Assembly: GCA_903851235.1 (NCBI GenBank) | Contig: CAINNR010000032.1 | Coordinates: 25-64,024, forward strand | Source: an uncultured Candidatus Berkelbacteria bacterium | Lineage (GTDB): Bacteria; Patescibacteriota; UBA1384; XYA2-FULL-43-10; CAINNR01 | Length of the DNA stretch: 64,000 nt | Reading direction: 5' to 3' | Shown here: in pieces, positions 2,122-62,889 of the stretch | Numbering within the stretch: the stretch's first letter is position 1 | How the letters are laid out: the number at the start of each line of letters is the position of its first letter | Notes under the pieces: model-generated | The model's input: the letters and a program-made list of their open reading frames with translations, nothing else | What the model was told of the DNA's origin: nothing | Databases searched by the model: none | Made by a program: the position numbers and the translations under genes

Positions 2122-2224
2122 AATCAATTTTTTATTACTAATATAAGTATAACAAAATTCAAGATCAACCGCTACTTTGTAAAAATAGAATTAAAAAAGG
2201 GCTCTCTCGTGAGAGCCCAAATGT

Positions 2225-3223
2225 TCAACCGATCACCCTGATCGGTACTACTCCCTGTGGAGCGAATGGTAGCTCCTTAACAGGGATTATTGTGTAGAGC
2301 CAAGGGCCGGGACCCGCCACAAGTTGGATGGTTGGGGTGGCGGTTACGATTGTTTCGACCTGACCGACTCGCAACTTTACTCCGGGTCGAACGGTCTGCC
2401 TAACATCACCGTCGACCAAGAGTTGTTTTTTCCCAAAACGTGACATTTTGGACGTTTCCTTCAATTCCGCCTGAGTCTTCTCGGCCTTGGCAGAAGAGAT
2501 TGTCCATGTCCCGTTTTCGTTCGTTGCGATGACAGTGCCTTGCCCCGCCGGGATGGCGGTACCGAGCATGGAAAACACAGGAGTCTGTTGGCTTGGAGTC
2601 CAGACCTGTACGGTGCCATTACTGGCAGTCACAGCCCAGCTCTGGTACAAGTACTTGTCTCTAGGCGCGAATTCCAGCTCTAACCGATTCTCGAACCGTC
2701 CGCTGGTGGCAAGTGACCGCCACATGCGTTTTGGCGACCAGATGTCGTTCGCACGGCCGGCGACTTCGGCGTAGGGAATTACCACTTGACGCCATTCGTC
2801 TTTGTTGTCGGCGCCGAAAGTGGAATCCATACTGTGATCGGTGTTATCGCCACGGACGATGAGACCGTCGTGGCGAACCTCGGCAACGCGTTTGACTGCC
2901 CAGCCGAGAGTCTGCCCTCGGAGGGCAACCAGGTCGTTGACCCGAAGTTGCTTCGCCGGATCGGTGAGCCGTTCCATGTGGAAGTTGCCACCGATCAGTG
3001 GCAGTGTTGGCTGCATCGACGGTCCAAAGACGGGGTGGTAACCCCAGATCATCGGGATCGTTGCAAACAACCCGAGGGCAACCATTCCTCCCAGGATCAG
3101 GAATGCCAGCCACATTACGATGCGGCCGACGATGTGGGCCGACAAGTCGGCCTGCCACCATGGAACCGTCGTTCGGACAGGTCGACGCAGAACTTCGGTT
3201 CCGGCGTGTGCAAAGATAGCCAT
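2225..3223 (-). CDS. Signal peptidase I (S26 family)-like membrane protein with a long C-terminal extension. Strongly GC-rich compared with its surroundings.
   Basis: 332-aa ORF. The motifs 'GPSMQPTL' (catalytic Ser box) and 'DGLIVRGDNTDHSMDS' are typical of LepB-like peptidases, and there is a TM helix near the N-terminus. GC is visibly higher than in the flanking DNA. Confidence 0.65.
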   Translation of the reverse strand: MAIFAHAGTEVLRRPVRTTVPWWQADLSAHIVGRIVMWLAFLILGGMVALGLFATIPMIWGYHPVFGPSMQPTLPLIGGNFHMERLTDPAKQLRVNDLVALRGQTLGWAVKRVAEVRHDGLIVRGDNTDHSMDSTFGADNKDEWRQVVIPYAEVAGRANDIWSPKRMWRSLATSGRFENRLELEFAPRDKYLYQSWAVTASNGTVQVWTPSQQTPVFSMLGTAIPAGQGTVIATNENGTWTISSAKAEKTQAELKETSKMSRFGKKQLLVDGDVRQTVRPGVKLRVGQVETIVTATPTIQLVAGPGPWLYTIIPVKELPFAPQGVVPIRVIG

Positions 3224-3308
3224 CAGAAACAGCCTCCGTGCCCGTGTTGGGCGGGTTTTGTGTTTGGAAAAGTGCGGTTTTGATAACGCCTGCGCATTTG
3301 CGCGGGTG

Positions 3309-3356
3309 CTACCTAACCCAAGGATTTTCGGTTTTTAGGCTGAAAACTGCTTGGAT
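3309..3356. repeat. Direct repeat copy 1 (48 bp, identical to 4170-4217).
   Basis: ctacctaacccaaggattttcggtttttaggctgaaaactgcttggat. It is followed by a second, diverged similar block (...tagcatacttttaaaaaaaagtcaatgagt). Confidence 0.85.
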
Positions 3357-3404
3357 TAAGTACAAATCGTTACGCTTGCATTATAGCATACTTTTAAAAA
3401 AAAG

Positions 3405-3947
3405 TCAATGAGTTTTCTCTTGAATTTTCTTCACCATCTTAATACTGTAGTCTCTGAAATCATTTTTTAAATAAAAGTTGATGGCATTTTTATTAAATGC
3501 GTGGACGAGAACAATTAAATTATTAATTCCTTTTTTCTTTGCCCAATTCTGAGTATTTTCTATTAACATTGTCCCAACGCCCTGGCGGGAAAAATCTTTC
3601 GAAACCGACATTTCTTCAACTGAAACACGATTATAGGGGTGAGTCCAATCGTCTCCGTCATCTTTTTCTATAATTGCATAAAGTATGCCGACAACTTTTT
3701 CATCAATTTCGGCAACTAAAAGAAGAGCGTTTTTGTCCTCTGTAATATTTAGAAATGTTCCTTTTGGAAGTGTTGGGATTGGCGGATTTTTGTAATCATT
3801 GGAAATGTTTTTGCTGTAAAGCTTATAATTTTGTTGATATAAAAAATCAACAGATTGAAAATCTGTTTCAACTGCTTTTCTGATTTTGATATTTTCTATT
3901 GTCATTTTATTGTATTGTTCTGCCGGTGGACGCTTTAAGGCGTCCAC
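3405..3947 (-). CDS. GNAT family N-acetyltransferase.
   Basis: 'RQGVGTMLIENTQNWAKKKG' matches the acetyl-CoA binding motif A. The first 14 annotated codons overlap a perfect hairpin, so the true start may be the internal Met at ~3905 (MTIENIK...). Confidence 0.7.
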   Translation of the reverse strand: MDALKRPPAEQYNKMTIENIKIRKAVETDFQSVDFLYQQNYKLYSKNISNDYKNPPIPTLPKGTFLNITEDKNALLLVAEIDEKVVGILYAIIEKDDGDDWTHPYNRVSVEEMSVSKDFSRQGVGTMLIENTQNWAKKKGINNLIVLVHAFNKNAINFYLKNDFRDYSIKMVKKIQEKTH

Positions 3948-37337: not shown

Positions 37338-37413
37338 GGGGTCGTAGTGTAGTGGTTATCACGTCTCCCTGTCACGGAGAAGATCGCCGGTTCGAGTCCG
37401 GTCGACCCCGCCA
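37338..37413 (+). tRNA. tRNA-Asp (anticodon GTC). It marks the left boundary of the cassette array.
   Basis: Acceptor ggggtcg/cgacccc, anticodon stem-loop tctcc-ctGTCac-ggaga, T-arm ccggt-tcgagtc-cggt, discriminator g, CCA. A TTGAAT-17-TAAAGT promoter lies upstream. Confidence 0.85.
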
Positions 37414-37476
37414 TTAAAATTAGTCGCTATCAGAGCGTCTTTTTTTGTATCAGGCAGACCGGATGCAGAACTTTTG
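37411..37476 (+). repeat. Boundary element E0: the tRNA-Asp 3' end, its downstream hairpin, T-tract and the right inverted repeat. This is the template that every later boundary element copies.
   Basis: ccattaaaattagtcgctatcagagcgtctttttttgtatcaggcagaccggatgcagaacttttg. Confidence 0.75.
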
Positions 37477-37525
37477 TATTTCTGAATACTAATCAGGTTT
37501 CATTTTATTGCATTGATCTCTAAGT

Positions 37526-38245
37526 TTGGATATTATTGAGGTTATGATAGATGGAATAAAACAGAAATTACTAGATATAAGCCAACCTTGCCCAGAGCGA
37601 GACCGCGTTTTTGTTCTGAAATATTTGGGTACCAACAAAGAATATCTGAACATACCGGCGCCAGCCAGAGATAAAATTATTTCAAAGGTTATTGTCGAAA
37701 CTTCCGATCTTCCGCCAGAAAAGATTATCGAAATTCTAGATGAATTATTTAGTTCCGGGATTTATGACTACATAAATTTTGCGGGAAAATTTCTTTCAAA
37801 AAATAAAACCATTCGCAATTTTATCTCCCTTGATCAGCTTGAAAGTTGGATTGCGCAAACAAAGGGTTGGGCCGAGTGTGATAGTATATGTCAGTCTATG
37901 TTTGGCGGGGTTGAAGTATTAGACCGTTGGAAAGAATGGGCGAGAGCTATCAAAGAGTTTTCCAGTAGCGACAATATTCAAATTCGCAGAGCAAGTCTAG
38001 TTCTGCAAACTCGACCAGCCAGAGAAGTTACTGACTTAAATTTCAGACGGTTGGCATTTATAACCATTGAAAAATTGATGGATGAAAGGGATATTTTAAT
38101 TACTAAAGCAATATCCTGGCTCTTACGAGACCTTTCTATCAAAAACAAAACTGAAGTTAGAAAATTTTTGAAAACAAATCAATCAGTTCTTCCAGCGATT
38201 GCATACCGAGAAACAATGAAGAAGATTGAAACGGGGAAAAAGTAG
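37526..38245 (+). CDS. Cassette 1: DNA alkylation repair enzyme-like (AlkD/AlkC HEAT-like repeat family). Tentative.
   Basis: 239-aa all-helical ORF. Its length and the C-terminal 'ISWLLRDLS...REAMK'-like pattern fit pfam DNA_alkylation. Confidence 0.45.
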   Translation: MDIIEVMIDGIKQKLLDISQPCPERDRVFVLKYLGTNKEYLNIPAPARDKIISKVIVETSDLPPEKIIEILDELFSSGIYDYINFAGKFLSKNKTIRNFISLDQLESWIAQTKGWAECDSICQSMFGGVEVLDRWKEWARAIKEFSSSDNIQIRRASLVLQTRPAREVTDLNFRRLAFITIEKLMDERDILITKAISWLLRDLSIKNKTEVRKFLKTNQSVLPAIAYRETMKKIETGKK

Positions 38246-38273
38246 CGATAACAAAAAACGGCTAGCAATTGAT

Positions 38274-38370
38274 CAAAAAAGTTCTAACATCGTTCGCTAT
38301 TTCCCGCCAGCAAACCGAATGATGTTAGAACTATTCGGTTTAATCGCTCTAGAAGCGATTTTTTTGTTGT
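38274..38370 (+). repeat. Boundary element E1: perfect 11-bp inverted repeats, a tRNA-3' mimic and a terminator.
   Basis: caaaaaaGTTCTAACATC-gttcgctatttcccgcca-...GATGTTAGAAC, then aatcgctctagaagcgattttttt. Confidence 0.8.
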
Positions 38371-38426
38371 GCGCCAGGGCTGAAATAAACTAACTAAACA
38401 TAGAGTTTCAAACAGTCATCGACATA

Positions 38427-38455
38427 TTGACATTTATTAATTAATATGATATTAT
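38427..38455 (+). promoter_or_regulatory. Consensus promoter of cassette 2; leaderless mRNA.
   Basis: TTGACA, 17 nt, TATTAT, with the ATG at 38463 seven nt after the -10. Confidence 0.6.
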
Positions 38456-38462
38456 GCTCATA

Positions 38463-38723
38463 ATGACCACTCAGAAGGAGACTGACATGACACTGCTTGA
38501 GTTCGTGAAGATGTTGGGGACGATCATGATCCGTGCGATCTTTGACGTTGTCCGGCCTCTCTCGCCGATCATCGGCGCGTTGGCCTTGATTGGGTTCGTC
38601 GTCGAGATCGTCCGGCACCATAGTACATCGTGGGAGCTTGCGCTGTCAGCGTTAGCCCTTGGCGCCATGGCTTACCTGACGCGGCGGCCTGAGCTGCGCG
38701 GGTACACAATGTTCCCGAATTGA
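38463..38723 (+). CDS. Cassette 2: small GC-rich membrane protein, hypothetical.
   Basis: MTTQKETDMTLLEF..., two predicted TM helices. Terminator at 38782-38826. Confidence 0.5.
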   Translation: MTTQKETDMTLLEFVKMLGTIMIRAIFDVVRPLSPIIGALALIGFVVEIVRHHSTSWELALSALALGAMAYLTRRPELRGYTMFPN

Positions 38724-38830
38724 CCGCGCCCCCGCTAGGGCAGGTCACAAACCCATCCCCAATACTCTTCAGTTGCGGGGAAGGACCAGAGCAATCAAAA
38801 CATTGATTTTTCTGGTCCTTTTTTAAATCA

Positions 38831-38931
38831 CAATAGTTCTAACGTCATTCGCTATCTCCCGCCATTTAAATTAGTCGCTCTTATAGCGTCTATTTTTTGT
38901 TACGGCAGACCGAATGTAGAACTTTTTATTG
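38831..38931 (+). repeat. Boundary element E2.
   Basis: caatagttctaac...cgctatctcccgccattt...agtcgctcttatagcgtctattttttgttacggcagaccgaatgtagaacttttt. Confidence 0.8.
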
Positions 38932-38982
38932 AGTGTTAACTTTCGAATTAGAATTTTTAACGGTGATGTATCTGAAATCCAG

Positions 38983-39011
38983 TTGACAAACATATTAAAA
39001 GTTGATTATAT
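38983..39011 (+). promoter_or_regulatory. Consensus promoter of cassette 3; leaderless mRNA.
   Basis: TTGACA, 17 nt, TTATAT, with the ATG six nt downstream. Confidence 0.55.
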
Positions 39012-39017
39012 AAGCGT

Positions 39018-39710
39018 ATGCAAGAAAAAGTCTCCAAAATAAAAAAATATTACGACAATCCTGATCAATATCTGGCGGAACATAAGGATTTTTTTTCTAT
39101 CCATAATCCCGAAAAAGATGTGGATTTTTTAATAAAAGTATTGGAAATTGAAAAAAGCGATAATATTCTTGACATAACTTGCGGTCAGGGACGACACACG
39201 ACTGAACTAGCAAAAAGAGGTTATACAGTAAGTGGTGTTGATTTTTCTTCTTCTCTTATTGACGAAGCAAAACAAATAGCTATCGATGCTAATATTAAAT
39301 CACAGTATTATATCCAGAATATCGAGTCACTTAAGTTACCATCAAAGTTTGATATGGCATATTGGTTTTTCTCTGATTTTGCCAACATTGACCTTGCATC
39401 GGCAATAAAATCTATTTCTAATCAGCTCAATCCCGGCGCTAGAGTCCTATTCGATTCAGATAGTCTTTTCCGAATTGTAAGTCATTTGCAAAATAATCCG
39501 GACTCTCCATACAAATTTGACCCAAAGTTACTTCAGTTAATAGACAATTCTCTCGGTCTTAGCATCCCTTATCCAACTTTCCTTATGTGGCAAGATTGGT
39601 TGAACAAAAATGAACTTGAGATTATTAATGTTTGGGGAAATTACGATCTCTCATCTTATGATATTAAAAGTCCTCGTCTGATCATTTTAGCTAATAAAAA
39701 AGCTGCTTAA
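39018..39710 (+). CDS. Cassette 3: class I SAM-dependent methyltransferase.
   Basis: Motif I 'ILDITCGQGRHTTELAKRGYTVSGVDFS'. Confidence 0.75.
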   Translation: MQEKVSKIKKYYDNPDQYLAEHKDFFSIHNPEKDVDFLIKVLEIEKSDNILDITCGQGRHTTELAKRGYTVSGVDFSSSLIDEAKQIAIDANIKSQYYIQNIESLKLPSKFDMAYWFFSDFANIDLASAIKSISNQLNPGARVLFDSDSLFRIVSHLQNNPDSPYKFDPKLLQLIDNSLGLSIPYPTFLMWQDWLNKNELEIINVWGNYDLSSYDIKSPRLIILANKKAA

Positions 39711-39744
39711 GTCAGAATCGACCTAAACAGCTTGTAGTTCTCCG

Positions 39745-41175
39745 CTATGCCGAGGTGGCATGGGAATTGATCGTGTCATAGAGATTGTCGACCTTGCACT
39801 TGAAGAGGCCGGGGTCCTCTGTTAGTATCCACATCAGCTCAAGTACAGAGTCATGGATCTCCTCGCACTTGAAATGAGGCGAACGCAGGTCTCTCGTGGT
39901 CTGATAGTTCTCTCCTCGACAGTTGCCGGCACAGATATACCTGATATCGCAAGCCGCGCATTTTGGATTCATACTATCGATGTTCAGACTGCGAAGATCC
40001 GTCAGAATGGGGGATCCCTTCCAGATCTCAGCCAAACTATCGGTTTTCAGATTGCCCAGGCAGAAATCGGGGACCGCAGTATCGGCGCATGGGTACAGTG
40101 TGCCGTCCGGTTTAACGTAAACCGCTCGATTCGTACCGATTCCACAGCCGAAGCTTTTGACGCCTCCTGCGATTCCCATCACTTGGTTTGCGAAGGTCGA
40201 GTACATCATCAACTGCTGAAGTCGCTGATCATCTCGTATTGCTTCGAAAACCTTCCGGTAGAAATCCGCCAAAGGGACAGCAACGAGTTGTTGCTTCGTT
40301 TCGGCGCTGTTGCCTCGGCCTACATTCATCATGTTTAAACAGTTAAGGCCTTGGACTCCAAGAGAATCGACCAACTTGAGTGTTGGTCGGACCTCATCGA
40401 TATTGCCTGCGTGAATAAACATGTTGACGGCAACTGAGATCCCTGCGTCGCACAGTGCCTTGATGTTGTTGACTGTTGTAGTGAATGTTCCCTCTCCACG
40501 GATGTATTCGTGGCTCTCAGCCCGACATCCGTCAAGGGAAATCGACATTTTCAGCCGGGGATATTTCGCCAGTTGTTTGATATCTGCTGGCGCCAACAGA
40601 GTCGCATTGGTGTTCACTTGAGCGAAATAGCCATGGTTGTGAACATATTCAATCAGATCCATGGCATCGGGGCGGGTAAACAGCTCACCGCCGGTTAGGG
40701 CAACGCGCGATATGCCGTTTTCCCAGGGCATACTCGAAAGTTGATCGATAACTGCTTTGATTTCGACAGAAGTCATCTCGCCGGGGATCTTCTCTTTGGC
40801 CATGGCATAACACATTGCGCATTCCATGTTGCAGAGTTGAGTTGTGGCGATAACCAAGACATTTTCGACTTCATTGACTTGGAAATCCGGCTTATTCTCT
40901 TCGACATCAACCTTCTCACCATCTACTACCAGCACTCCAGCGGAGTGCAGCAGATCGATAGTTTCAGCGACGATGTCGCCAGCCTCCTCTGCTGAGAGTC
41001 CCAATTGGGTTCTGATCTTAGTGACAGCCACATCAGAGTTTCCACAAGCCAACGACTCAAGGATGAGGGCAATCTCCGCCGTTGCAGAGAACCAGTAGGG
41101 TGCTGAGGGAAAGATCACGACTGCTGATTCTTCCCTGAAATAGACCGATGGTTTTTCGGTGAATGCCAACTGCAT
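39745..41175 (-). CDS. Cassette 4: radical SAM enzyme with a C-terminal SPASM domain and a ~110-aa N-terminal extension (a possible RiPP recognition element). Likely a peptide-modifying maturase. GC-rich.
   Basis: 'CNMECAMC' (CxxxCxxC) and C-terminal 'CAACDIRYICAGNCRGENY'. RBS GGGAGA lies before ATG at 41175. Confidence 0.8.
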   Translation of the reverse strand: MQLAFTEKPSVYFREESAVVIFPSAPYWFSATAEIALILESLACGNSDVAVTKIRTQLGLSAEEAGDIVAETIDLLHSAGVLVVDGEKVDVEENKPDFQVNEVENVLVIATTQLCNMECAMCYAMAKEKIPGEMTSVEIKAVIDQLSSMPWENGISRVALTGGELFTRPDAMDLIEYVHNHGYFAQVNTNATLLAPADIKQLAKYPRLKMSISLDGCRAESHEYIRGEGTFTTTVNNIKALCDAGISVAVNMFIHAGNIDEVRPTLKLVDSLGVQGLNCLNMMNVGRGNSAETKQQLVAVPLADFYRKVFEAIRDDQRLQQLMMYSTFANQVMGIAGGVKSFGCGIGTNRAVYVKPDGTLYPCADTAVPDFCLGNLKTDSLAEIWKGSPILTDLRSLNIDSMNPKCAACDIRYICAGNCRGENYQTTRDLRSPHFKCEEIHDSVLELMWILTEDPGLFKCKVDNLYDTINSHATSA

Positions 41176-41198
41176 TTCGGTCTCCCTTCAAAAAAGAT

Positions 41199-41226
41199 CA
41201 GTGAGGCGCGCTCGCGCGCCTCACTG
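41199..41226 (-). terminator. Attenuator/terminator hairpin between the precursor peptide gene and the maturase.
   Basis: Perfect 12-bp stem cagtgaggcgcg-cgag-cgcgcctcactg followed by a U-tract on the minus strand. Confidence 0.6.
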
Positions 41227-41239
41227 TTGTTACGTGGAG

Positions 41240-41332
41240 CTACTGGCCCCGGTAGTACATCGTCCCTTGTGACTCCTTAGTCAAGACGACGATACGACGA
41301 TTGCCACGGTTCAAAATCCGAAACTTCCGCAT
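41240..41332 (-). CDS. 30-aa candidate RiPP precursor peptide (MRKFRILNRGNRRIVVLTKESQGTMYYRGQ). It is not in the supplied ORF track.
   Basis: A strong SD (AGGAGGagcgtcATG) and a TTGACA promoter on the minus strand at ~41408. It lies directly upstream of the radical-SAM/SPASM gene and is separated from it by an attenuator hairpin. Confidence 0.55.
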   Translation of the reverse strand: MRKFRILNRGNRRIVVLTKESQGTMYYRGQ

Positions 41333-41478
41333 GACGCTCCTCCTGTCAGATGGTGTAAGCTGTCGAAACAGCTTCACTATTATTATTAACATACTTTTTT
41401 TACTTTTGTCAACAGCATCGAGTAAATCTGATAACTTTATGAGGATATTTTTATTAATTTTTATGCTAAAATTTGATT

Positions 41479-42153
41479 ATGAATTGGAAAATTTATAAAA
41501 CACAACATTATACTTTTCACTACTTCTCAGGAACTTTGGCAGAAAAGGAAATTGAGAAAATAGCGGATGAACAGGAAGCGTTTTATCGTCATATTTTGTC
41601 GTAACTAAATTTGAAAAATGAGCGTACCATAAACTATTTTTTATATCCAGCGAATCAACTAAAGGGTGAAATAATGGGCGATGATGGTAATGGCAATACT
41701 AATCGAGAAAAATTTGAAGTCTACGCTGTCTACAATGAAAATATAAAATGTATTGGTGCGCATGAAGATACTCATCTCCTATCTCTTCCATTGGGATTGG
41801 CAACTAAACTATTTCGAGAAGGCCTGGCAGAGTTTATGAGTAAAGAATGACATGGAAAAACTCATGATTTTTGGGCTAAAAAATTTCTGAGTGAAAAAAA
41901 GATTCCTGGACTAGCGAAAATTTTAGATGATAAAGAGGGGGATAAAATCAGCGACTTAATTTCTTATCCTTGCGCCGGCTCTTTTTACATATTTTTAATA
42001 TCTAAAATTGGTAAAGGTATTTTTTTAAAACTTTATGGAGCCCTAGACCGAAATATAAATGTTGAAATAAACTTAGTAACAATTAAAGATATCACAAGTA
42101 AATCTTTAGACCAGTGGCAAAAAGAATGGGCAGAAAAAGTGTTGTACCAGTAA
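41479..42153 (+). pseudogene. Cassette 5: decayed gene. One continuous frame is interrupted by TAA (41602-41604) and TGA (41848-41850).
   Basis: My translation reads MNWKIYKTQHYTFHYFSGTLAEKEIEKIADEQEAFYRHILS*LNLKNERTINYF...AEFMSKE*HGKTHDFWAKKF...KVLYQ* in a single frame. No boundary element separates it from cassette 4. Confidence 0.5.
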
Positions 42154-42200
42154 AATATCTGCCTCTTGTTCATCAACTAGTCCAACCTTAGGGAGCCATA

Positions 42201-42297
42201 CAAAAAGTTCTAACTTCCCCCGCTGTGTTCCGCCATTGAAAAAGTCTCTCTGGAAGAGATTATTTTTGTATACGGCAGACTGGATATAGAACTTTTG
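42201..42297 (+). repeat. Boundary element E5.
   Basis: caaaaagttctaacttcccccgctgtgttccgccattgaaaaagtctctctggaagagattatttttgtatacggcagactggatatagaacttttg. Confidence 0.8.
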
Positions 42298-42414
42298 TTT
42301 TTAAACGTAAAACTTCGGATTGGATTTGAAACGAAATGTATGGGCTATTGTCCAAGAGGTCGTCATCATGTACAGATGTTTGACAAAACTGTTGATTGCC
42401 AATAGACTTAGACT

Positions 42415-42756
42415 ATGAAAACAATCGAAGACAAAATAAGTATCAAAGATTTGCAGGAGATGGCAGAAAAGATGTTCGGCAATTTGGTTAAAGCGGTAAT
42501 TGACATAGAGAAAGAGGCGATGGTCGTTGACGCCGAGCTTTATTCAGACGAGGAAGCGGTTCTAATTGAAAACGGATCAAAACAAAAAGATCTTTGGGGA
42601 ATAAATATCTATCCAAATTTACCCAAAGCCGACCAAATTGAATTTGATTCAATGATTAATTTGCGACCAAAACAGAACAACAGAAGCCGGAGTGTTGATG
42701 ATCCAAAAATCAGAGAAATAATACTAAAAATTTGTGATAAATTAATCAAACAATGA
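42415..42756 (+). CDS. Cassette 6a: hypothetical protein, first gene of a two-gene cassette; leaderless.
   Basis: 113 aa. TTGACA-17-TAGACT promoter with the ATG six nt after the -10. Confidence 0.5.
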   Translation: MKTIEDKISIKDLQEMAEKMFGNLVKAVIDIEKEAMVVDAELYSDEEAVLIENGSKQKDLWGINIYPNLPKADQIEFDSMINLRPKQNNRSRSVDDPKIREIILKICDKLIKQ

Positions 42757-43082
42757 CATATGAACATCAAAATTTGGCCGAAGGCAAGTGGAATAAAATT
42801 CCATTTTTTGAGCAGATGGCTAATATCGGAAGTGAGGTTTTTCGCACAATCAGTTGGAAGAAAAAAAACATTGATTATTCAAATAAAGCTTTTGACAGAA
42901 CTCTCGAACTACTGGATATGACGATTGAAGATTCTAAAAATCGAGGACGACTAAAAGAATTAGTTCGTTTGCGTGAAGTCCTGACCGATTATTTTGTCTT
43001 TGACAATGAGTACAAATCAAATGATGAATTATGGCAGAAGTATTTTTACGCGTTCAATTATGTCGCTAGAATAAATTGTTAG
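42753..43082 (+). CDS. Cassette 6b: hypothetical protein, start overlapping 6a (ATGA).
   Basis: 109 aa, translationally coupled to 6a. Confidence 0.5.
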   Translation: MTYEHQNLAEGKWNKIPFFEQMANIGSEVFRTISWKKKNIDYSNKAFDRTLELLDMTIEDSKNRGRLKELVRLREVLTDYFVFDNEYKSNDELWQKYFYAFNYVARINC

Positions 43083-43083
43083 A

Positions 43084-43150
43084 CAAAAAGTTCTAAATTT
43101 AATCGGCGCTCTAAATCTCCGCCAATGAAAAAGTTAGTCCAGTGCTAGTT
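43084..43150 (+). repeat. Degenerate boundary element E6 (left half only).
   Basis: aaaaagttctaaatt...cgctctaaatctccgccaatgaaaaagttagtccagtgctagttttttt. Confidence 0.5.
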
Positions 43151-43216
43151 TTTTTGCGTACTAAAATAGTATATTCTAATTATCTTTTAGCAAATTGTCC
43201 CTGTCCAAAGTGGTAT

Positions 43217-43888
43217 TGTAGATATATGAAATTATTTTTATCACTAGCTCTGATTGCTTTGCTAACAATAGCTGTCTATTTTTGTTTAACCAAAAAACCT
43301 AGCGATAAAAAATACAATAATATATCCAGAAAAAAAGCTATTATGATATCCGCAACAATATGCATTATTCTGGTTGGAACACTGGCTTATTTAATGTATA
43401 AATCGGCGACAGCTCCAGATATGCAATGTACTACAGTTCACACAACTTCACTGATGCCACCAAAGTCTCTGGCTAGTGCTATGGATTATTACCTTCAGGG
43501 CAATTATGATTATGAAACCGGAAATTGTCAGAAAGCGATTGTTAATTTTAATGCCTCAATTCAACTTGATCCGAATTATCCACAAGCATATAACAACCGG
43601 GCATACACTTTTATGCGAATGCAAAATTATAAAGACGCATTATCAGATCTAGACAAAGCCATTGCCCTCAATCCAAATTATATCAACGCCTTAATGAACA
43701 GGGGCGACATTCACAATTATTACTATGCGATTGATCGCAAAAGCTCGACTGAGGACTACGAAAAAGTAATTTCCCTGGGCGGTGAAAAAGATACAAGCGT
43801 GTGTGGACATCTACTTTTGGCGAAACATGATGGCTGGAATTTGGGCACTCTTTTAGCTCTTCACCAAACTTTGTACAGTTGCAATTAA
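43217..43888 (+). CDS. Cassette 7: membrane-anchored TPR-repeat protein.
   Basis: N-terminal TM (MKLFLSLALIALLTIAVYF), then tandem TPRs (AIVNFNASIQLDPNYPQAYNNRAYTFMRMQNYKDALSDLDKAIALNPNYINALMNRG). Confidence 0.65.
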   Translation, partial: CRYMKLFLSLALIALLTIAVYFCLTKKPSDKKYNNISRKKAIMISATICIILVGTLAYLMYKSATAPDMQCTTVHTTSLMPPKSLASAMDYYLQGNYDYETGNCQKAIVNFNASIQLDPNYPQAYNNRAYTFMRMQNYKDALSDLDKAIALNPNYINALMNRGDIHNYYYAIDRKSSTEDYEKVISLGGEKDTSVCGHLLLAKHDGWNLGTLLALHQTLYSCN

Positions 43889-43911
43889 CTTGTGCACTCA
43901 TCATAAAATAA

Positions 43912-44060
43912 ACTGGTTCTGACATCATCCGCTATACCTCGCCATTTTGCCCGGGTCTAGCGGAGGGCGTTAGAACCGGAGGAATAATCGCTTTCAGAGC
44001 GGTTATTTTTGTTTTTACAAGTACAAAATTATTTCACAAAATAGATGTTAGAACTAAAAA
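43912..44060 (+). repeat. Boundary element E7: an extended form with two right-IR copies.
   Basis: ggttctgacatcatccgctatacctcgccatttt...gcgttagaacc...aatcgctttcagagcggttattttt...atagatgttagaact. Confidence 0.7.
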
Positions 44061-44094
44061 AGTGTTTCCGAGCTCTTGAATCATTGCGCGGCTG

Positions 44095-44123
44095 TTGACA
44101 TGTGAATGTATTTATGATAAACT
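44095..44123 (+). promoter_or_regulatory. Promoter of cassette 8.
   Basis: TTGACA, 17 nt, TAAACT. Confidence 0.45.
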
Positions 44124-44161
44124 AATTGAAGTTTTCACCAACCCAGAAAGAGTGATGCCAC

Positions 44162-44503
44162 ATGATGTTGCTCCAGATTGTCGGCATGCCAAAGGACGCA
44201 CCCGAACTGGATTGCCTGAGGAAGAGGATAGCTGAGACAATGGCCCCTGTTCTTGAACAGGATCTGCTGGTTACCTTCGTGTGCGACATGGAACCAGTTG
44301 AGGTATGCGCTGGACTGTTGTTCAGACTGGAGCCATTTGGTGAAATGACACAAAAGCTCGAGCAAGATGCTGCCGGTCTGTCGGAGCCTCTTGGTGAGCT
44401 TATCCAGGGGTATGCCAAGCAACATGGACATCAGTTCTGTTGTCCGTTCGAGATCACATATGTTCATCCCAAGACTCAGTATGTTTTGGGGGTGAATGGG
44501 TGA
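44162..44503 (+). CDS. Cassette 8: GC-rich hypothetical protein (a weak MIF/tautomerase-like N-terminal pattern).
   Basis: 113 aa. GC content clearly above the host. A terminator gcccc-ttgatc-ggggc-ctttttt follows. Confidence 0.45.
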   Translation: MMLLQIVGMPKDAPELDCLRKRIAETMAPVLEQDLLVTFVCDMEPVEVCAGLLFRLEPFGEMTQKLEQDAAGLSEPLGELIQGYAKQHGHQFCCPFEITYVHPKTQYVLGVNG

Positions 44504-44574
44504 CCAGTCACCAATTCTGCTTCTTTCACACTCGCCCCTTGATCGGGGCCTTTTTTAATTCAAATTTCCATTAC

Positions 44575-44672
44575 CAGAGTTCTATCATTGTTCGCTATTT
44601 CTCGCCATTGAAAATAGTCGCTTCCAGAGCGTCTGTTTTGCATCCGGCAGACCGGACGTAGAGCTTTTTTTA
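44575..44672 (+). repeat. Boundary element E8.
   Basis: cagagttctatcattgttcgctatttctcgccattgaaaatagtcgcttccagagcgtctgttttgcatccggcagaccggacgtagagcttttttt. Confidence 0.8.
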
Positions 44673-44709
44673 AATGTAAAGCTTCGAATTAGAATTTTTC
44701 ACAGCAGTA

Positions 44710-44738
44710 TTGACTTTTGAGTCTGAATATGATATTAT
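44710..44738 (+). promoter_or_regulatory. Promoter of cassette 9, followed by a ~185-nt structured leader.
   Basis: TTGACT, 17 nt, TATTAT. The leader contains several hairpins and a strong SD (aaGGAGGcgtttaggATG). Confidence 0.5.
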
Positions 44739-44929
44739 ATAGTAATCTCAGAATAAGCTGATGGGTATCGAATTTCTGGCGTAAATTAAGACAAATATAG
44801 GCACGAGAGTCTTTAAAACTTGTTTTTTAGAGATTCTCCCGCCTGTATAGGCGGCTATCACATAGCTGGGGTACTTTCATCCTCTACCCCTGAAGCCTAG
44901 AGCTTAAAGCTACAAAGGAGGCGTTTAGG

Positions 44930-45460
44930 ATGAACGCCAGCAAAGTGATTAGAATGCAGTTGACCAAAAGAAGGCTTCCGGCCGTGTGGGAGCGCGGCGG
45001 TTACACTGGCATCAGTATTGACAGTGAGCCAGTGGGTATTGGGATCGTCTGGGCTAACCCGGATGGTATGCCCTATCGCCCATATTTCATTCAGGACACC
45101 GAACCGAACGACCAGCAGGCATTGGTTCCTGTCGAGAACGGGAGCTGGATGGTCGTTGCGAGACAGTGGCATCCTGGTAGATTCAACTATGAGGTCTGCC
45201 AGGTTACCGATGTTCGCACCGATCCAGACTCGTACGGCTTGTCTTTGAGTGAAGTGTTTCAGATGACCGATGGTGAGCCAGACTATCAGTGGCGTCATGA
45301 ATGGCTCAGCTGTTGGTCTCAACAGAAGTCGCACGGCCACCCTCAATCCGTGATCTCAGCCGTACCCATCACACTGAAGGCGGCTATCGACGCCGCCCTG
45401 GCCAAATGCCAGTGCCCGGGTTGCAGGGAAGCACACTATGTGCTGCCTCGCAAGAAGTAG
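44930..45460 (+). CDS. Cassette 9: GC-rich hypothetical protein.
   Basis: 176 aa with a strong SD and no family recognised. Confidence 0.55.
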   Translation: MNASKVIRMQLTKRRLPAVWERGGYTGISIDSEPVGIGIVWANPDGMPYRPYFIQDTEPNDQQALVPVENGSWMVVARQWHPGRFNYEVCQVTDVRTDPDSYGLSLSEVFQMTDGEPDYQWRHEWLSCWSQQKSHGHPQSVISAVPITLKAAIDAALAKCQCPGCREAHYVLPRKK

Positions 45461-45498
45461 CAACAACAAGGAGGACGGACATCAGTTGTTCGTCTTCC

Positions 45499-45549
45499 CC
45501 CTCAACACATTAAGTGTTCTGATGAGTCGTTGAAATTACGACGAAAGGG
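45499..45549 (+). ncRNA. Hammerhead ribozyme (type III, open helix III), copy 1.
   Basis: CCCU-C|AACAC-auuaa-GUGUU-CUGAUGA-G-UCG-uugaaauua-CGA-C-GAAA-GGG. All core nucleotides are present. Helix I is a 5-bp hairpin, helix II is 4 bp closed by the conserved G10.1-C11.1 pair, and helix III is CCCU/AGGG. The predicted cleavage is after C at 45503. Confidence 0.75.
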
Positions 45550-45554
45550 ATAAA

Positions 45555-45653
45555 CAAAATAGTTCTAACTCCCTTCGCTATGCTCCGCCATTAAAAATAG
45601 TCGCTCTAGAAGCGATTATTTTTCTATGTGATAGACAGGATGTAAAACTTTTG
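45555..45653 (+). repeat. Boundary element E9.
   Basis: caaaatagttctaactcccttcgctatgctccgccattaaaaatagtcgctctagaagcgattatttttctatgtgatagacaggatgtaaaacttttg. Confidence 0.8.
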
Positions 45654-45685
45654 TATTCTTAAGCAATTAAAATATAATGTAACTA

Positions 45686-45714
45686 TTGACATTTTATAAC
45701 TTTCTTGCTATAAC
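45686..45714 (+). promoter_or_regulatory. Promoter of cassette 10.
   Basis: aactaTTGACA, 17 nt, TATAAC. An SD (AGGGAGG) then precedes the GTG start. Confidence 0.5.
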
Positions 45715-45750
45715 TATTATACATTCTGAGAATACAAGGGAGGTCATCAC

Positions 45751-46077
45751 GTGACCAGTCAGGAAATACGAGATGCATTGACCGGCGTCGTCGCGGGCAC
45801 CAAGCTACGCCTTACCTTCAACGCTGGGAGTGGCAAGAAGGGCTTTCTCGATGGTGAGACCAAGGCGGCAGTCTGCTACTTCGTAATGATGAAGGACGCG
45901 AACATCATCTTTCCGGACGAGATGGACTGGGCCGTGATGTACGCCGTCGGGTTGTCAGGGTATTGGGATCACGATTCGAACCGCATTGTCGAGGTTCTGA
46001 TCCCAGAGGGTTTCAATCTCGACTGGTTCTCCCAGCGTCTCGAAGGCGGGTTGGAGAAGCTCGAAGTCATCGGATGA
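45751..46077 (+). CDS. Cassette 10: GC-rich hypothetical protein.
   Basis: 108 aa, GTG start. The terminator caccacctagc...ggctggtggtttttgtttt (46104-46140) belongs to the same family as the one after cassette 16. Confidence 0.5.
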   Translation: MTSQEIRDALTGVVAGTKLRLTFNAGSGKKGFLDGETKAAVCYFVMMKDANIIFPDEMDWAVMYAVGLSGYWDHDSNRIVEVLIPEGFNLDWFSQRLEGGLEKLEVIG

Positions 46078-46160
46078 GTTACTCCGACGACAGGTGTAAA
46101 GATCACCACCTAGCTGTAACAGGCTGGTGGTTTTTGTTTTAGACAGCGAAATTCTTGAAA

Positions 46161-46232
46161 CAAAATGTTCCAACTTCCTCTGCTGTCTACTGCCAATAAA
46201 TTAGTCTCTGATAGAGAGTCTTTTTTTGTGTA
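46161..46232 (+). repeat. Degenerate boundary element E10.
   Basis: aaatgttccaacttcctctgctgtctactgccaataaattagtctctgatagagagtctttttttgtgtact. Confidence 0.5.
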
Positions 46233-46283
46233 CTATTGGTTCCACTTGGTCTATAAATCGACTTTGTATGGTAGAATGAAGCC

Positions 46284-46745
46284 ATGAGAATGATAATTAT
46301 ATATCAATCATTTCACCACAAGAACACAGAAAAAGTGGTAAATGCAGTAGCCCCAATTCTTAATTGTGAAGCAATCCCGCTCTCAAAAGCGAAACCTGAA
46401 ATATTAGCCGATTATGACGTTATAGGTTTTGCCAGCGGAGTTTATTATGCAAAGCCGCATGTTGGATTCGAGAAGCTAATTGCCAAAAACAACTTTCAAG
46501 GGAAAATGTGTTTTATCATCGCTACAAGCGGTGGACCTGATACTTTCTATAATAAATTCCATGACAATTTTAGAAAAACTTTTACAGACGCTGGATTTGA
46601 GATAATCGACTTTTTTCAATGCCTCGGTTTTGATACCTATCCTGCGATTTCAAAGCCTTTTGGTGGTTTTGCCAAAGGACACCCCAATAAAGACGACCTT
46701 GAAACGGCGAGATTATGGGCAAAAAAACTAATTGACAAGATATAG
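46284..46745 (+). CDS. Cassette 11: flavodoxin-like fold protein (flavodoxin/NAD(P)H-FMN reductase-like); leaderless.
   Basis: 'MRMIIIYQSFHHKNTEKVVNAVA...DVIGFASGVYYAKP'. A -10 TAGAAT sits six nt before the ATG. Confidence 0.6.
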   Translation: MRMIIIYQSFHHKNTEKVVNAVAPILNCEAIPLSKAKPEILADYDVIGFASGVYYAKPHVGFEKLIAKNNFQGKMCFIIATSGGPDTFYNKFHDNFRKTFTDAGFEIIDFFQCLGFDTYPAISKPFGGFAKGHPNKDDLETARLWAKKLIDKI

Positions 46746-46837
46746 AGCTGCAACTTATATCAGGACTACGGAATTGTTTTGAAATCAAATTAATCAGAAC
46801 GTTCAAAGAAGGTCTTGGCTCCATATTGTTGATAATC

Positions 46838-46905
46838 CAGTTCTAACATTGTTTGCTGTTCCCCGTCAACGAAAACAGTCGCTACCAGAGCGACTGTTTT
46901 TAATT
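46838..46905 (+). repeat. Boundary element E11 (left IR, mimic, perfect 7-bp terminator hairpin).
   Basis: ccagttctaacattgtttgctgttccccgtcaacgaaaacAGTCGCTaccagAGCGACTgtttttaatt. Confidence 0.7.
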
Positions 46906-46956
46906 TAAGCCGGGAAATTTTTACTAAAAAACGCAAAAGATCTTGCCACTTTACTT

Positions 46957-47328
46957 CTACTTCTTCGCCTTTGACTGGTTGTTGCTTATGGCTGCGCGAA
47001 CAAGAGCCGCAATCTTTCCTTCTTGTACCTGATCACTTTCAGAAAAATCAATAGCCCGCCACTTATTACCAGCCAGTCCGGCGTTGAAGAGTTTGTCAGT
47101 ATCACTAATTGCCGCACCGTCCGGAAAAACAAGCTTCACTTTATTTTTAAAAATATTTCCGACACAAATAATCCCGCCCAACGACCAGATTGGTGACCCC
47201 ATCCATTTCCAGTCTTCAATAATTTTAGGGTCAACAGTGAGAATAATCTTGCGAAGTTTAGCCAGTGTGGCGCCGCGCCAGTCGTGATTCTTTGCGATCA
47301 AATTGTCAATTTCTTCACTTGGATTCAT
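46957..47328 (-). CDS. Cassette 12 (reverse orientation): DUF1801 (YdhG-like) domain protein.
   Basis: The start is set at the Met preceded by GGAGGcggcc (MNPSEEIDNLIAKNHDW...). The track's 47370 start is 14 codons further up. Size and 'W..GSPIW' pattern fit DUF1801. Confidence 0.55.
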   Translation of the reverse strand: MNPSEEIDNLIAKNHDWRGATLAKLRKIILTVDPKIIEDWKWMGSPIWSLGGIICVGNIFKNKVKLVFPDGAAISDTDKLFNAGLAGNKWRAIDFSESDQVQEGKIAALVRAAISNNQSKAKK

Positions 47329-47452
47329 GGCCGCCTCCATATGTTTCCATGTTGTTTGGGTTAAATTCATTCATCTTACTCCTCGTATTAATCTATCTTA
47401 AAACTATCACATTTGATATTTAGGCACAAGCTTCTATTAAACTATTATTAAA

Positions 47453-47540
47453 ACAAAAAGTTCTAACATCCTCCACTATCTGACACCGAATGCCCGAGTC
47501 TAGTGGAGTATATAAATGCTACGAGCGGATATCTTTGTTT
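47453..47540 (+). repeat. Boundary element E12 (partly degenerate).
   Basis: caaaaagttctaacatcctccactatctgacaccgaatgcccgagtctagtggag...cggatatctttgttttt. Confidence 0.6.
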
Positions 47541-47609
47541 TTAAGACGCAATATAATTTCAGAAATTTGTAGGTTAAAACTAAAAATGTTGGCACTTTAC
47601 TCGAAACCC

Positions 47610-47638
47610 TTGACATTATGTAAATAATTTAGTATAGT
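47610..47638 (+). promoter_or_regulatory. Consensus promoter of cassette 14.
   Basis: TTGACA, 17 nt, TATAGT. The leader has an SD (cGGAGGcacaagATG). Confidence 0.6.
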
Positions 47639-47679
47639 TTTTCGTACAAGGTTGTTAATACCGTCTTCGGAGGCACAAG

Positions 47680-47913
47680 ATGACACTCGGACTCATACTG
47701 CTGGTCGCTGGAGTTATTGCATTTTTGGTAGGATTTGCCATTGCAGCGAACAACATGGCTTCAGTCGCCAAGAACCCTGACGACATGCTTGACAGCCAGA
47801 ACAACCCGTTCGTGAAGCATCTTGGCGCCATGGTAGTCATGGCCTTCGGTGGTGGTAGCGCGCTCATCGGCCTTGTCCTAATCGTCATTGCGCTGGTCGG
47901 CAAACACGCGTAG
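47680..47913 (+). CDS. Cassette 14: small GC-rich two-TM membrane protein.
   Basis: 77 aa, MTLGLILLVAGVIAFLVGFAIAA... Confidence 0.55.
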   Translation: MTLGLILLVAGVIAFLVGFAIAANNMASVAKNPDDMLDSQNNPFVKHLGAMVVMAFGGGSALIGLVLIVIALVGKHA

Positions 47914-47966
47914 TAAGCACAACAACAGAGGGGATTCACTAAGAGGGTACGAAGTTGTACTCTCCC

Positions 47967-48017
47967 CCCTCAACATTAAATTGTTCTGATGAGTCGTTGA
48001 AAATTACGACGAAAGGG
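47967..48017 (+). ncRNA. Hammerhead ribozyme (type III), copy 2.
   Basis: CCCU-C|AACA-uuaaau-UGUU-CUGAUGA-G-UCG-uugaaaauua-CGA-C-GAAA-GGG. Helix I is 4 bp; in copy 1 a compensatory change makes it 5 bp. Confidence 0.75.
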
Positions 48018-48021
48018 ATAA

Positions 48022-48112
48022 ACAAATAGTTCTATCATCCTCCATTACCTCTTACCATGAAAAAGTAGCCTTGGAAGCTATTTTTTTGTATATGGCAGAC
48101 CGAATGTAGAAC
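48022..48112 (+). repeat. Boundary element E14.
   Basis: caaatagttctatcatcctccattacctcttaccatgaaaaagtagccttggaagctatttttttgtatatggcagaccgaatgtagaacg. Confidence 0.8.
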
Positions 48113-48136
48113 GTCTGTCCTTCTAGGCTCACAACT

Positions 48137-48165
48137 ATTGACACACTTGGCACTTTTTGTTATAG
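48137..48165 (+). promoter_or_regulatory. Perfect-consensus promoter of cassette 15, duplicated at 62890-62918.
   Basis: aactaTTGACA-cacttggcactttttgt-TATAGT-gatttgcgaagac. The 46-bp segment 48133-48178 is almost identical to 62886-62931. Confidence 0.7.
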
Positions 48166-48196
48166 TGATTTGCGAAGACAGAATCCTGAAAGGATG

Positions 48197-48712
48197 TGTT
48201 TGTTTATGTCCTGCGGATGTCCGAGACCGTTGCTACTAGATGTTGATCTGCCGTTTCTGATCGAGACCGTCTTACCCCACGTGCTGGCCGAGGTTGCCAG
48301 AGTCAGCGACATGCGAGATCGAGAGGGTGGCATGTTCGTGTTGATGCGAGCCGTCACCGGCGAGATCATCGTCGGCCCGAAGCAGGTCGGCCAGATTAAC
48401 AACGGTAAGGAAGATAAGTACGCCGAGTTCGCTCAGGAGAAACCGGTTCGGCTCCTCGAACACCCAGATCACTGTCTGAGCTGGGAGAGTCGAGATCCGG
48501 ACAACAACAAGTGGGGTGGCGCCGTCAATGATGGCCTCTTCGTCTGGTCCTTCTCCGGACTCTCGGAGGAACAGGACGAAGCGCTCGTGCTGATGGCATC
48601 CCATCTCTGCGGCCGCATTCGCAACGGCGACCCCAAGGCAATGGCAGAGATTTCCAATAACAGAATCATCATCGACAATCCCTACCTCTTCTGGTGTCCT
48701 CGGGAGAGTTAG
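48197..48712 (+). CDS. Cassette 15: GC-rich hypothetical protein.
   Basis: About 170 aa (MCLFMSCGCPRPLLLDV...). The start is ambiguous between ATGs at 48197 and 48209; the track uses TTG at 48170. Confidence 0.5.
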   Translation, partial: CLFMSCGCPRPLLLDVDLPFLIETVLPHVLAEVARVSDMRDREGGMFVLMRAVTGEIIVGPKQVGQINNGKEDKYAEFAQEKPVRLLEHPDHCLSWESRDPDNNKWGGAVNDGLFVWSFSGLSEEQDEALVLMASHLCGRIRNGDPKAMAEISNNRIIIDNPYLFWCPRES

Positions 48713-48762
48713 AGTGTCGGCGACACGGGGACTTACCCAAATGGGCACGACCTGTGCCCATT

Positions 48763-48813
48763 CCCTCAACATTAAATTGTTCTGATGAGTCGTTGAAAAT
48801 TACGACGAAAGGG
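48763..48813 (+). ncRNA. Hammerhead ribozyme (type III), copy 3.
   Basis: CCCU-C|AACA-uuaaau-UGUU-CUGAUGA-G-UCG-uugaaaauua-CGA-C-GAAA-GGG. It is preceded by the terminator-like hairpin gggcac-gacct-gtgccc. Confidence 0.75.
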
Positions 48814-48818
48814 ATGAG

Positions 48819-48918
48819 CAAATTGTTCTAGCTTACTACGCTATCTTCCGCCAATAAAAATAGTCGTTCTACGAGAGGTTATTTTTTTGTATATTGCGGA
48901 CCGGATGCAGAACTTTTG
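48819..48918 (+). repeat. Boundary element E15.
   Basis: caaattgttctagcttactacgctatcttccgccaataaaaatagtcgttctacgagaggttatttttttgtatattgcggaccggatgcagaacttttg. Confidence 0.8.
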
Positions 48919-48950
48919 TCTTTATTGACCATTGAAACATCACAAATCTA

Positions 48951-48979
48951 TTGACATTATATGATATACGTGATATATT
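48951..48979 (+). promoter_or_regulatory. Consensus promoter of cassette 16.
   Basis: tctaTTGACA, 17 nt, TATATT. The leader has an SD (taGGAGtctgcaATG). Confidence 0.55.
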
Positions 48980-49048
48980 ACCGAAGTAATATCGGGAACG
49001 GTAGACGTCTGGTATAACATCAAGTAAATTCTCTGATAGGAGTCTGCA

Positions 49049-49282
49049 ATGGCCACGCCTAAGAAAATCGCCATGCTTCTCTTCGGAGCAGGGTACCGTT
49101 TGTCCTTGACAGATGGGCACTACCGCTTCAGCGACAGATCAGGCAAGACGCTGCTTCAGCGCGACCAACCACCATCACGCTTTGATTTCGAAGTTCTTCA
49201 ATTTGCTAAGGGATCTGGGATTATCATCTCGAGCAATACCGATGTTGCCGAAGTAGCACGAGAACTAGCACAGATGGAGTAG
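49049..49282 (+). CDS. Cassette 16: GC-rich hypothetical protein.
   Basis: 77 aa. Terminator cccaccacctagccatatcaggctggtggtttttgtttt at 49295-49333. Confidence 0.5.
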   Translation: MATPKKIAMLLFGAGYRLSLTDGHYRFSDRSGKTLLQRDQPPSRFDFEVLQFAKGSGIIISSNTDVAEVARELAQME

Positions 49283-49354
49283 CGCGACTTGCGACCCACC
49301 ACCTAGCCATATCAGGCTGGTGGTTTTTGTTTTATCGGCCAAAATTATCGAGGC

Positions 49355-49400
49355 AAAAAAATTCTAACTTCCTAGTTGATCTCCGACAATGAAAAATCGC
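49355..49400 (+). repeat. Degenerate boundary element E16 (left half).
   Basis: aaaaaaattctaacttcctagttgatctccgacaatgaaaaat. Confidence 0.45.
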
Positions 49401-50552: not shown

Positions 50553-50650
50553 AAATCATCTCTAACATCGTTTTCTGCCCCCAGACATTAAAAATAGTCG
50601 CTCTGAAAGCGTCTATTTTTAATACTCCAGACCGGATGCAAAACTATAGA
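50553..50650 (+). repeat. Boundary element E18.
   Basis: catctctaacatcgttttctgcccccagacattaaaaatagtcgctctgaaagcgtctatttttaatactccagaccggatgcaaaactatag. Confidence 0.75.
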
Positions 50651-62117: not shown

Positions 62118-62200
62118 TTTGTTCCGCTCTGCCCCATCAATAAAAAAGTAGCTCTGGTAGCTATTTTTTCTTTACAGCAGACAGGGTATAGAACTTTTGT
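62118..62200 (+). repeat. Boundary element E25.
   Basis: tttgttccgctctgccccatcaataaaaaagtagctctggtagctattttttctttacagcagacagggtatagaacttttg. Confidence 0.75.
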
Positions 62201-62231
62201 CTTCCTAGGTTGTTGAAGCGTAGCGAAACTA

Positions 62232-62708: not shown

Positions 62709-62794
62709 TTTGACTCACAGAAACGTATACTGCCTTGCTTAAGGCAGTATTTTTTTGTCGGGGAACCTACCAATTAACCCGGTTATAAGCTTCC

Positions 62795-62873
62795 CCTACT
62801 GCGCTTTGCTATTGAATTTTATTTTCTTCTAGAGCGTCTTTTTTTGTGTCTGGCAGACTGGATGCAAAACTTT
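62795..62873 (+). repeat. Boundary element E26.
   Basis: ctactgcgctttgctattgaattttattttcttctagagcgtctttttttgtgtctggcagactggatgcaaaacttttt. Confidence 0.7.
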
Positions 62874-62889
62874 TTCTTTTCCTAAACTA

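Follow-up and report, generated by a model that had tools for sequence, protein, structure and literature searches.

Two in-frame stops in the gene of a predicted gluzincin metallopeptidase beside a radical-SAM maturase gene in Candidatus Berkelbacteria

A broken frame in a four-ORF unit

The window analysed here is a 64,000-nt stretch of a contig from an uncultured Candidatus Berkelbacteria bacterium. It carries an array of short units separated by boundary repeats of ~100 nt, and one of these units, extending from 38981 to at least 42367, contains four ORFs, the last of which is interrupted by two stop codons. The limits given for the unit are those of the sequence held in common, at 99.9% identity, with a second contig (L013, see below). 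The unit and the repeats on its two sides comprise the following features.

38830–38927 (+), boundary repeat on the left of the unit, detected with the repeat profile
39018–39710 (+), gene of a SAM-dependent methyltransferase of 230 aa, the first gene of the unit
39745–41175 (−), intact gene of a radical-SAM/SPASM protein of 476 aa, peptide-maturase-like, 50% GC
41199–41226 (−), hairpin with a 12-bp GC-rich stem followed by a T-run, attenuator- or terminator-like, between the precursor-like ORF and the maturase gene
41248–41340 (−), precursor-like ORF of 30 aa, MRKFRILNRGNRRIVVLTKESQGTMYYRGQ, preceded by a GGAGG ribosome-binding site
41479–42153 (+), putative pseudogene of a ~224-aa zinc metallopeptidase of clan MA (gluzincin), assigned by homology; one frame with two stops
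41602–41604 (+), in-frame TAA at codon 42, a position at which most close homologues have Tyr or Phe
41848–41850 (+), in-frame TGA at codon 124, a near-invariant Trp (TGG) in homologues
42201–42300 (+), boundary repeat directly past the pseudogene, composed of an arm resembling the 3′ end of tRNA-Asp, a terminator hairpin and an inverted arm

Counted from its ATG, the broken frame has 224 codons, sense or stop, and ends at a TAA (42151–42153). A random frame of this length and local base composition is expected to contain ~19 stops. Only 2 occur internally, while the five remaining frames of the same segment have 8–24 each, showing that 41479–42153 is clearly a coding remnant. The closest intact homologue, used as a tblastn query, gave a single HSP that spans both stops (residues 1–220, 66.5% identity), and no frameshift is therefore present. 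With the same query, no second copy of the gene was found in the 64,000-nt window. A preliminary description of this DNA had reported a ~224-codon frame with two in-frame stops and no frameshift, which it took for a nonsense-decayed gene. The exact translation and the single HSP agree with the first part of this statement, and the full-length homologues, which form single chains and have a sense codon at each of the two stop positions, agree with the second. The homology search that it had proposed as a check, performed with the conceptually repaired protein, returned 93 matching proteins (best match P0002, 67% identity, E 2e-93). The complete ones are uninterrupted and do not correspond to three genes; those of 222–233 aa span 94–99% of the repaired protein.

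Codon 42 is TAC in P0002 and TAC or TTT among the homologues, with a few more distant members differing. As read from this comparison, the first stop would have arisen by a one-base change of a Tyr codon (TAY to TAA) and the second by a one-base G>A change (TGG to TGA). These two independent nonsense mutations would have inactivated the gene: translation from the native ATG would end after 41 residues, and the last 100 codons, corresponding to the C-terminal helical half, have no start codon, so that no functional enzyme could be made.

Apart from the stops, the gene appears hardly degraded. Scored against a profile of 15 close homologues, the repaired protein reaches 343 bits, within the range of the family (leave-one-out mean of the homologues 360 +/- 20), which suggests a recent decay. 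Among 64 well-conserved columns it deviates at 7, including the Trp replaced by a stop, compared to 0–3 in 16 close homologues. This column count gives a weak hint of excess change, and hence of relaxed constraint, while the profile score is normal. The frame would thus represent a young, recently inactivated pseudogene.

The peptidase family

The HEDTH zinc-binding motif (codons 95–99, 41761–41775, +) is intact in the broken copy, and its H, E, D and H are invariant across 85 homologues. It is followed by a REGLAE motif (41818–41832, +) in which E114 is invariant and E118 near-invariant, placing a Glu 15–19 residues past HEDTH. Both residues lie on helix 109–120 of the model predicted for P0002, and the third zinc ligand may be one of these two candidates, E114 or E118. 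In an alignment of 20 sequences, the window sequence keeps all 18 invariant columns, including H95-E-D-T-H99 and E114-G-L-A117. PF13485 (Peptidase_MA_2) is matched by 10 of the 20 aligned family members (best E 2.8e-6). The repaired window protein itself gave nothing significant in Pfam or NCBIfam scans, with no PF13485 hit at E<=1, and a sequence-profile search of the PDB returned a chance hit only and no sequence-level relative of solved structure.

The fold was tested on the intact homologue P0002 and not on the broken copy. The AlphaFold model of this 67%-identical protein (85 homologues in the alignment) is a single compact domain with a pLDDT of 97.3. In Foldseek, peptidase domains of M9 collagenases rank first among its PDB matches and M1 aminopeptidases next (E 6e-5, TMq 0.68–0.72). 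Together, the motif and the predicted fold of the homologue identify the family as a minimal gluzincin (MA-clan) metallopeptidase, and the gene product is predicted to be a small zinc metallopeptidase of cytoplasmic type, ~225 aa in length. With Peptidase_MA_2, the M9 collagenases (ColH/ColG, Vibrio) and the M1 aminopeptidases it shares HExxH with a downstream Glu and the catalytic fold. In contrast to the M9 and M1 enzymes, the family consists of a single ~225-aa domain without accessory domains, and the window copy carries two stops. On the P0002 model, the first stop comes where the first long helix ends, so that the N-terminal sheet is split; the second lies just past the Glu-bearing helix and cuts off the C-terminal helical bundle.

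The two stops in other assemblies and alternative readings

The only near-identical database protein is P0001, a sequence of 159 aa that starts at Met66 and has a Trp at the TGA position. Its own contig, L001, an ENA sequence of 719 nt recorded in 3 samples, matches window positions 41478–42196 with 100% identity and carries both the TAA and the TGA; the Trp in P0001 is therefore an artefact of a gene caller using translation table 4. This public record (L001 197–676) owes its existence to the in-frame TGA being read as Trp by the metagenomic gene caller. Further ENA contigs encode a radical-SAM protein identical to that of the window.

Contig L013 (3415 nt), from a different assembly, corresponds to window positions 38981–42367 at 99.9% identity and again carries both stops; the 3 SNPs that distinguish the two sequences are all located in the methyltransferase gene. 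To the left of 38981, L013 and the window diverge completely and have different neighbours, indicating that the order of the array units differs between populations. In L013, which comes from another sample, the unit is preceded by AAGCCACCTTTTAATTGAGGCGGCTTTT, unlike window positions 38953–38980, and the junction lies ~50 nt past the boundary repeat, just ahead of the promoter-like TTGACA of the unit. Since two haplotypes with different neighbours share the stops, these are not random assembly errors, and the mutations predate the divergence of the haplotypes. As judged from the assembled contigs, the stops thus appear to belong to the DNA of the organism.

Since errors most commonly take the form of single-base differences, one could suppose that the organism has an intact gene and that the stops were introduced by sequencing or assembly. 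This is very unlikely given the recovery of both stops in L001 (3 samples) and in the other haplotype of L013, from another assembly run. Moreover, neither stop site contains a homopolymer, and 5.8 billion protein clusters contain no near-identical intact allele, the next best match having 67% identity. Alternatively, the nonsense alleles could be polymorphic, with an intact allele persisting alongside them, either within the population or among sister strains, and the gene thereby kept in the lineage. The overall sequence is not degraded, as would be the case for very recent mutations, and the assemblies compared are few (the window, L001 and L013). Nevertheless, every recovered copy, in two haplotypes, has both stops and the protein collection holds no intact allele above 67% identity, and we regard such a polymorphism as improbable.

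A functional gene could also result from stop reassignment or readthrough, with UGA read as Trp (code 4) and UAA as Tyr. At both stops the reassigned residue would match the conserved one, a public gene caller rendered the TGA as Trp in P0001, and in the maturase gene of a related locus (L012) the Tyr codon of a CxxxCxxCY motif is replaced by an in-frame TAA. However, Tyr and Trp codons are among those one step away from a stop, so that such a coincidence is to be expected, and the homologues use TGG and TAC/TTT at the two positions. Furthermore, among 48 non-overlapping ORFs of at least 150 aa in the window, the terminator is TAA in 24, TAG in 13 and TGA in 11. Under the standard code, ORFs of up to 1143 aa are unbroken, and consecutive genes overlap by 4 nt at ATGA (10406–11182/11179–12219 and 57982–60516/60513–61400). 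None of the 5 tRNAs found in the window is a suppressor, and we know of no bacterium in which UAA is read as Tyr. The genome uses the standard code with TAA, TAG and TGA all as terminators, and the earlier statement that TGA is a genuine stop here, without UGA recoding, is thus upheld. An in-frame TGA at a conserved Trp, together with the P0001 call, recalls the UGA-recoding lineages (table 4; table 25, Gracilibacteria/Absconditabacteria); unlike these, the window ends genes with TGA, the same frame also contains a TAA, and the homologues use TGG. Recoding of the two stops is accordingly highly improbable. Finally, the three segments might be separate small genes or form a functional split enzyme, since ORFs of 43 aa (41473–41604) and 79 aa (41611–41850) do exist and the second segment holds HEDTH and the conserved Glu residues. 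In the third segment (codons 125–224), however, no ATG, GTG or TTG occurs in frame before the last four codons, and this segment thus cannot be a gene of its own; it also lacks any listed ORF of at least 30 aa. Considering in addition that the complete homologues are all single chains (222–261 aa) and that both stops would dismember the one compact domain of the P0002 model, a split arrangement is extremely unlikely.

By itself, the pseudogene at 41479–42153 is ordinary and young and belongs to an accessory region. In practice it matters mainly for annotation: the frame is best recorded as a pseudogene rather than as three hypothetical proteins, and the P0001 record should be flagged as an artefact.

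A proposed RiPP-like module around the peptidase

Taken together, these results make it very probable that the frame is a pseudogene of a gluzincin peptidase, broken by two single-base nonsense mutations, and that this peptidase was part of a RiPP-like module. The three parts of this module would be a short precursor, a radical-SAM/SPASM maturase and the peptidase, which would share one array unit with the methyltransferase gene. The maturase (39745–41175, −) matches PF04055 (3e-20) and PF13186 (4e-12). Its best NCBIfam matches are peptide maturases, including the mycofactocin maturase, all below the family cut-offs. In the 30-aa ORF, FRILNRG aligns with the F-x-[IV]-L-x-x-G leader motif of 13 other precursors, while the core is unrelated and overall identity is low; the ORF ends in ...GTMYYRGQ, with a Cys-free core.

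The preliminary description had treated the broken frame as a cassette of its own that, unusually, lacked a boundary element towards the preceding cassette. The absence is real: a profile built from seven repeats gave strong copies at 38830–38927 and 42201–42300 and none between 38927 and 42201, even degenerate (nhmmer, E<=10). The separate cassette, on the other hand, did not stand. The peptidase pseudogene belongs to the same unit as the maturase gene and the precursor-like ORF, so that no boundary element is expected between them.

We examined the association of the peptidase with maturases in 80 loci, taken from one genome per species. In 38 of the 80 species-representative genomes, mostly Patescibacteria, a radical-SAM/SPASM ORF lies no more than 600 nt away from the family gene, and the partner maturase is almost always located upstream and in the same direction as the peptidase gene. 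Such a recurrent linkage suggests that the pairing is not accidental. In the other 42 genomes the peptidase has no adjacent maturase, and the functional link is thus statistical and not obligatory. The peptidase gene is also present in the cultured Minisyncoccus archaeiphilus (L048), where no maturase was detected beside it, so that this species does not offer the full module. Peptidase homologues also adjoin radical-SAM genes in loci L002, L003/L005, L012 and L016. The partner maturases are usually preceded by short ORFs that end in ...GKD[GSTAQ]CGY or, less often, in the variant ...KD[SG]CCG.R.; this conserved family of ORFs occurs upstream of maturase ORFs in many genomes of Patescibacteria (L030, L031, L038, L041, L042, L065–L069 and others), with L031 and L038 as examples of the standard ...GKDGCGY module. 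Three of these precursors, compared with the NCBIfam models, gave no match.

The arrangement in the window departs from this usual layout. Instead of a tight co-directional operon, the maturase gene is divergently oriented to the peptidase gene with a 303-nt spacer, and its product is only 22–24% identical to the usual partner maturases. In one locus (L049), a family member adjoins the maturase most similar to that of the window. The neighbouring radical-SAM genes, for which we considered orthology, are orthologous only in part: the maturases of L003, L012 and L016 share 34–72% identity with each other, compared to the 22–24% of the window enzyme, and the L002 enzyme is of an unrelated, B12-binding type. 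Furthermore, the maturase gene and the precursor-like ORF are exactly the contents of a block (~39735–41375) of ~50% GC with sharp edges, lying between flanks of ~33%. This block is bracketed by mutually similar AAGCTG...CAGCTT palindromes at 39701–39734 (AAGCTGCTTAAGTC...AAACAGCTT) and 41357–41374 (AAGCTGTCGAAACAGCTT). Similar blocks, GC-rich and with a radical-SAM gene, adjoin peptidase genes of low GC in L002 and L003.

The sharp GC block and the divergent orientation fit an insertion or a replacement of partner genes. The usual co-directional partners could have been replaced by, or joined to, a GC-rich divergent maturase and precursor of a different subfamily; the resident peptidase, which would normally remove the leader from the modified precursor, may then have become dispensable and decayed. 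A role of the peptidase in leader or tail processing is what its gene context would suggest. Tentatively, the pseudogene might represent a leader peptidase dedicated to a RiPP module that is widespread in Patescibacteria and seems undescribed; in this genome the module would be caught in the course of turnover, with a maturase and precursor of a different subfamily inserted. With a similar degree of doubt, the core types of such a module could be C-terminal ...GKDGCGY or ...KDSCCGGR, with F-x-[IV]-L-x-x-G as leader motif. In the literature on RiPP modules in Patescibacteria, we found no description of a precursor/maturase/gluzincin module.

The closest known parallel in logic is mycofactocin, in which the MftA precursor ends in ...CGVY, MftC is the maturase and MftE the peptidase. 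The window, with its candidate precursor, and related loci show the same combination of precursor, radical-SAM/SPASM maturase and peptidase, and the ...GKDGCGY end of the related loci recalls the C-terminal Gly-Val-Tyr of MftA. In contrast, MftE is creatininase-like whereas the window family is a gluzincin, no MftB-like partner was seen, and no maturase reached an NCBIfam cut-off. The window precursor, ending in ...GTMYYRGQ, also differs in having no Cys.

Broken parts of the module were observed elsewhere. The contig of L016 is binned as an ANME-1 archaeon; there (1689–3516), insertion of an IS with a DDE transposase splits the peptidase gene into a 74-aa N-terminal fragment and the 171-aa P0042, while the upstream precursor and maturase are intact. 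In L012, the radical-SAM gene (2607–3938) adjoining the peptidase homologue is interrupted in frame by a TAA that takes precisely the place of the Tyr in CxxxCxxCY, where the L016 orthologue (72% identical) reads CPYCYETG; this second Tyr-to-TAA event in such a module is probably a coincidence. In L094 the peptidase is frameshifted and accompanied by a fragment of a maturase, L079 contains a maturase fragment, and the peptidase of L047 may be truncated at its N-terminus.

A hypothetical protein family common in Patescibacteria thus gains a predicted function. The presence of the ~225-aa gluzincin beside maturases and precursors in about half of the sampled genomes leads to leader or tail processing as a function hypothesis, and the module is a candidate for a peptide natural product in organisms with very small genomes. 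The RiPP-like module and the architecture of the array are more interesting leads than the pseudogene itself.

The array and its boundary repeats

The array (37338–49400) begins directly at a tRNA-Asp gene (37338–37413), and further copies of its repeat are located at 50561–50645, 62121–62202 and 62788–62874. The ~100-nt boundary repeats copy the 3′ end of this tRNA (T-arm, acceptor and CCA: GTTCTAAC..CGCTAT..CCCGCCA), followed by the terminator hairpin found downstream of the tRNA and by an inverted arm, GGCAGACCGGATGTAGAAC. Each repeat forms an imperfect palindrome with GTTCTAAC and TAGAAC as conserved cores. The units carry promoter-like TTGACA-N17-TATGAT sequences and may hold several genes.

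A broken accessory gene among short units separated by ~100-nt imperfect palindromes resembles the situation in chromosomal integron arrays. However, no integron integrase or recombinase domain was detected in the 30 larger ORFs of the window that were scanned, including those flanking the array. The repeats also differ from those of integron cassettes in lacking canonical RYYYAAC/GTTRRRY boxes and in having arms derived from the 3′ end of tRNA-Asp. In addition, whereas integron cassettes carry a single promoterless gene, the units have promoter-like sites and that of the pseudogene holds four ORFs. The surrounding array is therefore not demonstrably an integron.

No copy of the boundary repeat was found in L001–L008, seven of which are homologue loci. 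A search of JGI metagenomes with the 19-nt right-arm consensus returned 11 unrelated contigs, mostly of high GC, with no sister arrays and no intact allele, and the literature yielded nothing specific on hammerheads or integrons in Patescibacteria. Three motifs resembling type III hammerhead ribozymes are present on the + strand of the window, at 45496–45552, 47964–48020 and 48760–48816, with intact CUGAUGA...GAAA cores. Their Rfam scores (40.6, 32.4 and 36.1 bits, respectively; E 5e-6 to 1e-3) are below the gathering score of 48.5. Each of the three is located directly upstream of a boundary repeat.
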